A stretch of 24,943 nt of DNA from Bacteroidota bacterium (GCA_034722575.1 JAYEOD010000061.1:1-24943); one strand, 5' to 3'; positions 1,955 through 5,034 are shown, counted from the first letter of the stretch. Numbers and translations are program-made. Notes: generated by a model not told the origin, from the sequence alone.

Positions 1955-3619
1955 TTATTCAACAATTAAGCGTTGTAATAATTCGTTTCCATTAATATTT
2001 ATCTTGATAAAGAATAAACCGCTATTGTAATTTCCGGTGTTAAGCATAATAGCATGATTTCCGGTAGATAATTCGCCTTGATTATATTCAGAAATTTTTC
2101 TTCCATATACATCGAAAACAGTAACTGCTACATTAGCCGATTCAGCTAAATTTATATTTAAAGTAGCCTCTTCTTTAGCAGGATTTGGGAAAATGTTTAT
2201 TGTAGTTGTTGAAGCAATATTATCAATTCCTGTACCGGAATGTGTAAAGAATTGTGTCTCTTCGCGACCACCAAAGTCACTATTGTTTTCAGCGATTATA
2301 TTTTCCTGACTGTCTTTCAGTTGATAAACACCAACGCCATTACTAAAACCATCGTCTCCTGAGTCGTACATTATAAACGAATAACAATTTTCAGGATCTA
2401 AAGGAAGTTCAACTTGCATCTCTACAAATGTATTAGCATCTTCATAAGGTCCGCCTGAATACATAACATCGCCATCTGAATTTGTTAGTTCCCACGATAA
2501 CTCTTCCGGATTCCCGTCAGTACGAACTATAAGAACCATTGTAGCTGTTGTGATGTCTGCATCAGTAAAAGTAGTTGATGCAGTATTGTTTGTTGGGAAT
2601 TCATCATCAACACCATTAGGAGCACTTATTTCAATGGCAACTGTGTTTTCTTCGCCGGTTTCAAATTCTACTTCTTCAAGAGTAACATCTTCTGATTCCA
2701 GTAAAGCAAGGCTGCCTGTCCAGCTATATGTACTAGATACATTGTTAACAGAATAGTCGATAACAAGTGAAGTTAACTCTTCTTGACCGTAATTTTGAAT
2801 TGTAACTACAGGAGTCATACTTCCAGTACAATTTGTAACAGGAACATTTTTGATATCTGCTATAGAAGCGTCAATATTAAGTCCTTCAAATGTATTTAAG
2901 GCAATCTTTTTTCCTTGCAGAATCTCTTTAGTAGAGTTGTCTTGTAGAAAAATTATTATCTCACAATTCTCATAATTCCAATTCTCTTCCAAGTCAAAAC
3001 CGAAATTCACAGTAATAGTTTCATTATCTGTAAAATCAACATCTGTTCCATATTGATTGGGAATCATTAATCTTTCAACATGACTTAATTCAGTTTCACC
3101 CATCCATGATTCTGGGATATGAGATTCTGTTAATACAGCGTGCATTTTAATATTTGAAGCGTCTGAATCAGCTACTTTTGTTAAAGTAGTTTCAATTTCG
3201 TAATGAACAAACCCTGCGCTAGTACCAGTTGTTGTAATAGAATATGAACAAGGGATATTTTTTCTTAGATTATATTTTGTATTATATGTTCCGTATAAAG
3301 AACCACCACCTACAACTTTTTCCACACCATCAAATATTGATGTAGGGAATCCAGTGATGTTATAATAACTAATTCTAGAAGCACCTGCTGTGTTATCGTA
3401 TTCATCACCACTTCCGCTATGATAAGCGATAGGGGCTAGATCAGCTCCGTTTTCTAGTAATTGATGAATAGCATCTGCCGCATCAGGGCAGTATCCGCAC
3501 CATGTGCCAGTTCCTTCTTCAAGGATAACCATCTCTCTTTCTACTTGTTGGGCATTTACTGTTGTTAATGATAATGCAAAAATGAGTAGAGAAAATGTTA
3601 GTAAGTTTTTAATTTTCAT
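1955..3619 (-). CDS. Omp28-related thioredoxin-fold protein with T9SS type A C-terminal sorting domain
   Basis: Signal peptide MKIKNLLTFSLLIFALSLTTVNA-Q; Omp28-like start (ILEEGTGTWCGYCP, CxxC; ITGFPTSIFDG; HVERLMIP); Ig/CARDB-like segment (PVVTIQNYG...FPTNN); WEL...CYSFIMYDSGDDG module; T9SS-type tail (IFPNPAKE...VFDVYGRKI...SGLFFIKI...RLIVE). Confidence 0.82.
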   Translation of the reverse strand: MKIKNLLTFSLLIFALSLTTVNAQQVEREMVILEEGTGTWCGYCPDAADAIHQLLENGADLAPIAYHSGSGDEYDNTAGASRISYYNITGFPTSIFDGVEKVVGGGSLYGTYNTKYNLRKNIPCSYSITTTGTSAGFVHYEIETTLTKVADSDASNIKMHAVLTESHIPESWMGETELSHVERLMIPNQYGTDVDFTDNETITVNFGFDLEENWNYENCEIIIFLQDNSTKEILQGKKIALNTFEGLNIDASIADIKNVPVTNCTGSMTPVVTIQNYGQEELTSLVIDYSVNNVSSTYSWTGSLALLESEDVTLEEVEFETGEENTVAIEISAPNGVDDEFPTNNTASTTFTDADITTATMVLIVRTDGNPEELSWELTNSDGDVMYSGGPYEDANTFVEMQVELPLDPENCYSFIMYDSGDDGFSNGVGVYQLKDSQENIIAENNSDFGGREETQFFTHSGTGIDNIASTTTINIFPNPAKEEATLNINLAESANVAVTVFDVYGRKISEYNQGELSTGNHAIMLNTGNYNSGLFFIKININGNELLQRLIVE

Positions 3620-3713
3620 AATTAGATTTTTTTATTAATAGTTTCGGTATTGTATTTATGACACCGGTATGTTATTTATGGTTGCCAGTAGAAATAAAAA
3701 AAATCTAATTATG
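3617..3713. repeat. Perfect 17-bp inverted repeat enclosing a 63-bp segment; one arm contains the Omp28-like start codon
   Basis: CATAATTAGATTTTTTT (3617-3633) is the exact reverse complement of AAAAAAATCTAATTATG (3697-3713). Pairing extends 3 bp inward with a 1-nt bulge. Confidence 0.93.
3645..3680. repeat. Two 16-bp direct repeats at a 20-bp period
   Basis: CGGTATTGTATTTATG (3645-3660) and CGGTATGTTATTTATG (3665-3680), 14/16 identical. Confidence 0.85.
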
Positions 3714-3731
3714 TTGGGATAGATAATTGAA

Positions 3732-3765
3732 AGCCTGCCAATAAAGAGTTTTTTATTGGCAGGCT
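3732..3765 (-). terminator. 14-bp hairpin downstream of metK; probable terminator or stabiliser with a weak U-tract
   Basis: AGCCTGCCAATAAA (3732-3745) pairs with TTTATTGGCAGGCT (3752-3765), 24 nt after the metK stop. Only TT follows on the minus strand. Confidence 0.65.
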
Positions 3766-3789
3766 AAGTGTGGTATTGGTATTATAAGA

Positions 3790-5034
3790 TTACTCTAAAG
3801 AGAATAGTTTTTTAATTTCATCTACTTTATCAAGTTTTTCCCAGGCGAAAAGATCTACAGTCTTTTCTACGCCTTGTATTATAACTTTTTTAGTAACATA
3901 ATCTCTTCCCATATGTCCGTGAGCAGCAGTTTCGCTAAAGATAGGATTTTTTAATCCGAATTTTTTAATTATATCTGCCGGACGTAGATGGAAAATAGTG
4001 TCTATTTTTTCAGATATCTTGCCATCAGTAAAATCAACATTTGATTTACCGTATGTGTTAACATATAATCCAACCGGCTCTGCAACTCCAATGGCGTATG
4101 CAACTTGAACTAAAATCTCGTCTGCAACACCGGCTGCTACCATATTTTTTGCAATATGTCGTGCGGCGTATGCTGCGGAGCGATCTACTTTCGATGAGTC
4201 TTTTCCTGAAAAAGCTCCACCACCATGAGCGCCTTTTCCACCATAAGTATCAACAATAATTTTTCTTCCTGTAAGTCCGGTGTCGCCATGAGGACCGCCA
4301 ATAATAAATTTTCCTGTCGGATTTACCAGCAGTTTGCAGTCGTCTCCAAACAAATCTCTTTGCGATTTTGGTAGTCTGTTTAATACTCTTTGTAATAAGA
4401 TGTTTTTTACATCTTCTTTTATCTTAGCTAACATCTTTTCATCATCACTATCAAAAGGATCGTGTTGTGTAGAGAGAACAATAGTATCGATTCTTAATGG
4501 GTTGTCATTATCGTCATACTCTATCGTTATTTGCGATTTTGCATCCGGACGAAGGTATGTCATCTCTTTGCCCTCGTTGCGAAGAGCAGAATGTTCTTGC
4601 ATAAACATATGGGCTAAAACAATAGGAAGTGGCATAAAATCTTCGGTTTCGTTGTTAGCATAGCCAAACATCATTCCTTGATCGCCGGCTCCTTGTTCTT
4701 CTTCGTTGTTTCTTTCAACGCCTTGGTTGATATCTGAAGATTGTTCGTGAAGGGTGGACATTACGCCACATGATTCTGAGTCGAAACGATAATCACTTTT
4801 TGTGTAACCTATTTTCTTAATTACTCTTCTTGCTACTTCTTGAACATCAACGTAAGCATTTGTTTTTATCTCTCCACTGAGAAAAACTAATCCTGTTGTA
4901 ACTAATGTCTCAACAGCTACTTTCGATTCAGGGTCTTGTTTTAGAAATTCATCTAATAAGGCATCTGAAATTTGATCCGATATCTTATCAGGGTGTCCTT
5001 CAGAAACAGATTCTGATGTAAAATAATATGACAT
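3790..5034 (-). CDS. metK: S-adenosylmethionine synthetase
   Basis: FTSESVSEGHPDK, GAGDQGMMFGYA, GGPHGDTGLTGRKIIVDTYGG, GGGAFSGKDSSKVDRS; 414 aa. Confidence 0.99.
   Translation of the reverse strand: MSYYFTSESVSEGHPDKISDQISDALLDEFLKQDPESKVAVETLVTTGLVFLSGEIKTNAYVDVQEVARRVIKKIGYTKSDYRFDSESCGVMSTLHEQSSDINQGVERNNEEEQGAGDQGMMFGYANNETEDFMPLPIVLAHMFMQEHSALRNEGKEMTYLRPDAKSQITIEYDDNDNPLRIDTIVLSTQHDPFDSDDEKMLAKIKEDVKNILLQRVLNRLPKSQRDLFGDDCKLLVNPTGKFIIGGPHGDTGLTGRKIIVDTYGGKGAHGGGAFSGKDSSKVDRSAAYAARHIAKNMVAAGVADEILVQVAYAIGVAEPVGLYVNTYGKSNVDFTDGKISEKIDTIFHLRPADIIKKFGLKNPIFSETAAHGHMGRDYVTKKVIIQGVEKTVDLFAWEKLDKVDEIKKLFSLE

Follow-up and report, generated by a model that had tools for sequence, protein, structure and literature searches.

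A perfect inverted repeat at the start codon of an Omp28-like gene encloses a putative ECF-type promoter and is very probably not a recombination switch

Does a perfect inverted repeat around the start codon of a gene for a secreted protein mark a DNA segment that can be inverted, an RNA hairpin that hides the start codon, or neither? The question is raised by a locus in a Bacteroidota bacterium (GCA_034722575.1) within the stretch JAYEOD010000061.1:1-24943, and by the window we mean the whole of this stretch, 24,943 nucleotides in length. The genome assembly has 2.69 Mb in 560 contigs with 34% GC and is ~90% complete; its DNA is present in brine-metagenome runs, with the locus itself in the Logan records SRR26901925 and SRR26901930, and homologues are named Bacteroidales or Marinilabiliales. 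In the 554-aa ORF that starts in the repeat, Pfam finds Omp28 (53 bits) and the T9SS domain Por_Secre_tail. Its start codon reads CAT at 3617-3619 and lies on the minus strand. This assignment is correct as judged by the N-terminus, since MK.(K/R)NLL, a signal peptide and a WCxYCP motif are kept among the orthologues. In this protein the thioredoxin-like motif reads WCGYCP, the NCBIfam model 'Omp28-related selenoprotein' matches below its cut-off, and some sources name the homologues thiol-disulfide isomerase. The features of the locus are collected in Table 1.

Table 1. Features of the start-codon repeat and its surroundings in the window
Feature	Position	Strand	Remarks
Omp28/T9SS cargo gene	1955-3619	-	554 aa, secreted; thioredoxin-like CxxC, Omp28 domain, T9SS C-terminal sorting domain
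Inverted repeat, downstream arm	3617-3633	-	+ strand CATAATTAGATTTTTTT; gene strand AAAAAAATCTAATTATG, i.e. the A-rich initiation region and ATG; ~+20/+36 relative to the predicted ECF transcription start
Interior between the arms	3634-3696	-	63 nt; contains the putative ECF-type promoter, oriented as in every relative compared
Two 14-nt direct repeats, 20 nt apart	3646-3659 and 3666-3679	-	one after the -10 element, one in the promoter spacer
Predicted transcription start zone	3650-3655	-	5-10 nt downstream of TGTC; placed by general ECF promoter geometry
Putative -10 element TGTC	3663-3660	-	17 nt after the -35 element, 40 nt before ATG
Putative -35 element GCAAC	3685-3681	-	conserved motif
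Inverted repeat, upstream arm	3697-3713	-	+ strand AAAAAAATCTAATTATG; gene strand CATAATTAGATTTTTTT; ~-60 to -44 relative to the predicted ECF transcription start
Hairpin after metK	3732-3765	-	14-bp stem, 6-nt loop; followed only by UUC, without a U-tract
metK (S-adenosylmethionine synthetase)	3790-5034	-	co-directional, upstream; source of any read-through RNA

The repeat is as an earlier note on this DNA described it: the two 17-nt arms are 100% complementary, the left one includes the ATG, and a homopolymer run of 7 lies within the arm. With the spacing of 63 nt the whole structure covers 97 bp including arms. Independent Logan contigs from four runs carry the same repeat with zero differences, so it is not an assembly artefact. 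We counted perfect inverted repeats of at least 17 nt across the genome (2.69 Mb) and found 12 with a spacer of 10-300 nt, versus 0.17 in shuffled sequences, and 4 with a spacer of at least 30 nt, versus 0. The shuffling was local, in blocks of 100 nt, and it destroys homopolymers, so a stricter null was added that starts from paired T7 and A7 runs. Such pairs, T7...A7 within 10-300 nt, number 1504 in the genome, and requiring 10 further complementary bases at ~0.32 per base leaves ~0.02 expected per genome. Among ~1950 crude gene starts, the upstream complement extending to the start codon is longest at this locus, with 17 nt, versus a maximum of 10 nt in the downstream control. The repeat exceeds chance for one genome, though a few repeats of this kind would turn up by chance if windows were scanned in very large numbers.

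The arm sequence has no second copy anywhere in the ~90% complete assembly. Other long perfect inverted repeats are found at C180:174-498 (21 nt/148), where several repeats are nested, C554:6809-6943 (19 nt/97) and C235:2795-2992 (18 nt/162); none of the three has arm sequence in common with the repeat at 3617-3713, which argues against a repeat family. A 15-bp stem with an 18-nt loop at C349:1040-1087 likewise covers a candidate start codon. Scans of JGI metagenomes gave 0 matches for both arms with any interior and 0 for the promoter core, and nothing in Rfam came near its gathering score over 3450-3900.

Our analysis suggests that the interior of the repeat holds a promoter of the ECF type. 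The motif GCAAC-N17-TGTC lies wholly within the 63 nt, on the gene strand, and is aimed at the Omp28 gene. We found it with exactly this spacing, on the gene strand and 33-49 nt before the ATG, in 7/7 genus orthologues including the one studied here. The six orthologues from other genomes of the genus share 43-46% amino acid identity with our protein, and their upstream DNA does not align to the window except for the GCAAC-N17-TGTC block. A sister species is closer (71-72% amino acid identity) and has the same metK-omp28-urocanase order; it is collinear with the window over the T-run, the promoter and the sequence up to the ATG, and its promoter has the one-base variant CCAAC-N17-TGTC. Since the promoter has the same orientation in the genus orthologues and in the sister species, the segment in the window is in its ancestral, gene-facing orientation. 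Among more distant homologues the motif is found in one, which is syntenic, and is absent from three. A search of 40 relatives with the DNA of the locus gave matches to metK and coding parts alone, at 64-79% identity, and past the sister species the spacer DNA aligned to none of them.

The spacing of the motif is also favored in the genome as a whole. The counts of GCAAC-Nx-TGTC are highest at x = 17, with 15 matches versus 2-11 at other spacings, where the instances were collected by regular expression and about half of the N17 matches are intragenic and probably due to chance. Across 21 instances, all with identical spacing, the consensus is GCAAC(c)-N-TGTC. We take the interior motif to be a putative ECF-type promoter of the Omp28 gene, for which both the sigma dependence and the transcription start are predictions. 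The two 14-nt direct repeats read ATAAATAACATACC and ATAAATACAATACC on the gene strand, and the sister species has TATATACA twice in the same places; they may be the site of a regulator. Another short box is conserved in the leaders of the orthologues (L030-L035), 15-25 nt ahead of the ATG; it consists of CTAAC with an A-rich stretch after it and reads ACTAACAAAA or TCTAACTAAAAC, and the window has CTATTAATAAAAAA at that place.

Which sigma factor could use this promoter? The hallmark of an autoregulated ECF sigma factor is a strictly spaced motif of the AAC/GTC type that precedes the sigma gene as well as a group of envelope genes. An ECF sigma gene of 180 aa on contig C110 of this genome (G000) encodes Sigma70_r2 and r4_2 domains and matches TIGR02937 at 101.7 bits, above the cut-off. 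GCAAC-N17-TGTC stands 27 nt upstream of its start. The motif is found just upstream of the sigma gene in 8/8 genus orthologues (63-70% identity) and is absent upstream of the sigma paralogues (~50% identity), and this distribution is the one expected of an autoregulated ECF promoter. We infer on these grounds that the C110 sigma factor is the partner of GCAAC-N17-TGTC. The motif also precedes four other genes with T9SS sorting domains, i.e. those for PKD, LamG/PNGase-F, BNR and C25-peptidase proteins. Together with the Omp28 gene they appear to form a regulon for T9SS cargo proteins under an ECF sigma factor, and one that is conserved throughout the genus. At C110:16000-21467 (L041) the sigma gene is followed by a gene for a 439-aa protein and then by the PKD/T9SS cargo gene; the 439-aa protein has a weak C-terminal match to an OMP beta-barrel and is a possible anti-sigma factor. 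The other motif-bearing loci, L042, L043 and L044, hold the large T9SS cargo genes (LamG/PNGase-F, BNR, C25 peptidase).

Promoters of autoregulated ECF (group 4) sigma factors, such as those of the SigM/SigX/SigW type in Bacillus subtilis, have the form 'xxAAC-N16-17-CGTx'. The promoter described here resembles those of autoregulated ECF systems in its AAC-containing -35 element (GCAAC), its GTC-containing -10 element (TGTC) and the fixed 17-nt spacing, and also in that the motif precedes the sigma gene itself as well as genes for envelope and secreted proteins. It differs from the known systems in belonging to an uncultured genus of brine Bacteroidales and in having T9SS cargo as its apparent regulon. 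SigP of Porphyromonas gingivalis was considered as an explanation and rejected, as its proposed motif is loose and differs from GCAAC-N17-TGTC (PMC4800418). The main text of the ECF reclassification paper has no matching promoter logo.

Repeats that flank a short promoter-bearing segment are one mark of an inverton, and this locus has 17-nt arms with a putative ECF-type promoter inside, placed upstream of a gene for a surface or secreted protein, as in the invertible promoters of Bacteroides (Mpi- or Tsr-driven, the PhaseFinder class). The earlier note proposed an inverton in its OFF orientation, in which the opposite-strand ATTG-N20-TATTTATG would drive the gene after a flip. Its observations hold: both boxes exist on the + strand at 3649-3680 with one mismatch each, and there is no exact TAnnTTTG facing the gene between metK and the ATG. 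The promoter that it read into these boxes is at the noise level, since matches of this quality occur at 7.3/kb on the + strand and 2.3/kb on the - strand of the window, i.e. 2-7 per kb per strand, and the + strand of the 170-nt spacer alone has four. The TATTTATG boxes are the complement of the 14-nt direct repeats found on either side of the -10 element of the conserved promoter, which lies on the opposite strand. That promoter already faces the gene, collinear with the six genus orthologues and the sister species, which contradicts the proposal, and a flip would turn it away. Everything that argues against any inversion at this locus, as given below, counts here too, and we regard the chance of an OFF inverton as negligible. 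A different possibility is a tiny inverton of 97 bp with its arms that is now in the ON state, and whose ECF promoter a recombinase would turn around in a part of the population, so that it no longer faces the gene. The layout would be the classic one, as the perfect repeats bracket the promoter exactly.

The orientation of the segment can be compared directly, as the earlier note had suggested. The contigs from four runs of one brine study are all in the orientation of the window, and no joints, alternative contigs or breaks are seen at the arms, where these are contigs only, at a depth of 5-10x, and a minority orientation would escape. The four contigs of the sister species and all six genus members are collinear with the window as well. 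No recombinase is encoded in the window, in agreement with the earlier note, and the genome-wide search it called for, for further arm copies and an invertase, left the arm unique and found no dedicated invertase. The genome has 0 matches to the serine recombinase family (Resolvase, PF00239), at ~90% completeness, and three tyrosine recombinases (PF00589) that score best as XerD, XerC and Xer/integron-like, where the last is a fragment cut by a contig end; the incomplete assembly and this fragment leave some room for an invertase. An interior of 63 bp is very short for recombination synapsis. Most invertons found by PhaseFinder are shorter than 300 bases, which favors a small one here, but those of the Bacteroidetes are the longest among the five most inverton-rich phyla (PMC11602134). 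Unlike the Bacteroides invertons, the locus has a single orientation both within the species and across its relatives, no invertase was found, the arm is single-copy whereas Mpi-type systems have a repeat consensus common to several loci, and the promoter is of the ECF type rather than the TAnnTTTG type. We consider an ON inverton quite improbable, and its more specific form, a minimal ECF-promoter inverton whose unassembled or Xer-like recombinase adds phase variation to the envelope-stress control of this cargo protein, highly improbable. The inverted repeat is very probably not a switch operated by recombination.

If not from a recombination system, where does the repeat come from? No repeat of at least 9 nt touching the ATG is found in the six other genus members or in four more distant homologues. 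At the orthologous position in the sister species there is an imperfect repeat of T7/A7 with 4 further bp past a bulge (8+4 bp), whose fold lacks significance (z -1.0). Window and sister species both have the T7 run that precedes the -35 element and the A7 run ahead of the ATG. Of the 10 outer positions, each arm has 4-5 that differ from those of the sister; the two arms are nevertheless perfectly complementary here, which calls for a concerted change. The simplest route to such a change is a single template switch that makes a quasi-palindrome perfect, and perfect repeats in bacteria are known to arise in this way (PMC5941160, PMC7202029, PMC8604942). The origin of the repeat is most likely a quasi-palindrome that was perfected by a single template switch, as suggested by the comparison of two lineages. 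The resemblance to documented cases of quasi-palindrome correction lies in the imperfect repeat of a relative, the perfect repeat here and the clustered multi-nucleotide differences in the arms; the difference is that only two lineages are compared, and both the event and its direction are presumed. The earlier note had made conservation of the repeat in relatives a common test of its two readings, and both are weakened by the outcome. The comparison with relatives gives no sign of selection on the hairpin, as the long stem is absent from the six genus members and not significant in the sister species.

The second proposal of the earlier note was that the arms pair in read-through RNA from metK and hide the start codon. 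The folding energy supports the stem, and the location of the promoter agrees with the proposal; the repeat is not conserved in the genus. The 17-bp stem appears in the MFE structure of the RNA from 3725 to 3595 (minus strand) and likewise in its centroid; the fold has -20 kcal/mol with z -5.2, and 0/200 shuffled sequences are as stable. The RNA from the predicted ECF start (~3655) is unstructured, at 0 kcal/mol. Given its position relative to this start (Table 1), the upstream arm should lie outside the gene's own transcript. Bacteroidetes initiate translation without Shine-Dalgarno pairing, and mRNA structure and an A-rich context modulate this step (PMC6847099); with such sensitivity to structure the stem should silence the read-through RNA. 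Read-through from metK may occur, as suggested by the hairpin without a U-tract after this gene, which probably terminates with some leakage. In the sister species this position is occupied by a canonical GC-rich hairpin with a T9 run behind it (L049 ~1395-1425). A scan for sigma-70-type signals, which covers neither Bacteroidetes nor ECF promoters, gave no promoter facing the gene and no terminator call for the metK hairpin. We consider it plausible that the hairpin hides the start codon, at most in the read-through RNA from metK.

The locus resembles the 5' hairpins that block translation in thermosensors, riboswitch expression platforms and isoform-specific translation, in that the start codon and the sequence before it are paired in a long stem. 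It differs in that the 5' arm lies upstream of the predicted promoter of the gene, so that only read-through transcripts would be blocked. Also unlike the thermosensors and riboswitches, no element that senses a ligand or temperature is evident, and the structure is not conserved.

Taken as a whole, we believe, with moderate confidence, that an ECF promoter drives the Omp28 gene, that the repeat is a lineage-specific, perfected quasi-palindrome, and that its stem blocks read-through RNA only. The gene for this T9SS cargo protein would be transcribed from GCAAC-N17-TGTC, which already faces it from within the interior. The T-run and A-run, held in common with the sister species, would be older, and the 10 outer bases would have been copied from one arm to the other, most likely by a template switch during replication. 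Transcripts that enter from metK would hold both arms and bury the A-rich initiation region and the AUG in the 17-bp stem, while those started by the ECF sigma factor would begin past the upstream arm and remain accessible. Translation would thus depend on the ECF promoter, as the metK-derived RNA would fold shut and the ECF-started RNA would not.

This explanation has to be weighed against one in which the repeat has no role at all. The repeat could be a neutral by-product of template switching or of chance, with the hairpin after metK terminating enough transcription that no RNA holds both arms. It is missing from the six genus members and the four more distant homologues, and the sister species has only a weak version. 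Template switching makes perfect inverted repeats over-represented in bacterial genomes generally (PMC5941160). Moreover 7 of the 17 bp are homopolymer runs, each with a likely reason of its own to exist, and the scanning of very many windows meets rare chance events. Against neutrality, a 14-bp hairpin that lacks a U-tract is unlikely to stop all transcription, any read-through would form the stem as a matter of physics, and the locus has the longest complement covering a start codon among the ~1950 gene starts. We hold the neutral explanation to be unlikely, though a serious candidate. It could also be speculated that the arms are half-sites of a DNA-binding protein that loops the DNA or occludes the promoter between them. 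The arms do flank the promoter, at about -60/-44 and +20/+36, and 14-nt direct repeats lie within the promoter as well, but the arm sequence is not conserved in any relative and is absent elsewhere in the genome, and no regulator gene is adjacent. This makes paired half-sites a very remote prospect.

The blocking of read-through RNA by the stem, with an ECF promoter behind the gene's own transcript, is hence the explanation that we prefer. If the hairpin is functional, the translation of a gene in a stress regulon would be made dependent on the promoter that made the RNA. The locus also indicates that in Bacteroidota an inverted repeat at a start codon is not necessarily an inverton, which removes a false lead, and that a comparison of orientation with relatives settles the inverton question quickly. 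On the side of regulation, the motif connects one ECF sigma factor, predicted to be autoregulated, with at least five genes for T9SS cargo throughout an uncultured genus, i.e. those for the Omp28-like, PKD, PNGase-F/LamG and BNR proteins and a C25 gingipain-like peptidase. The regulation of T9SS cargo genes is poorly known, unlike that of the genes for the machinery, and the proposed set of genes offers a regulon that can be tested.
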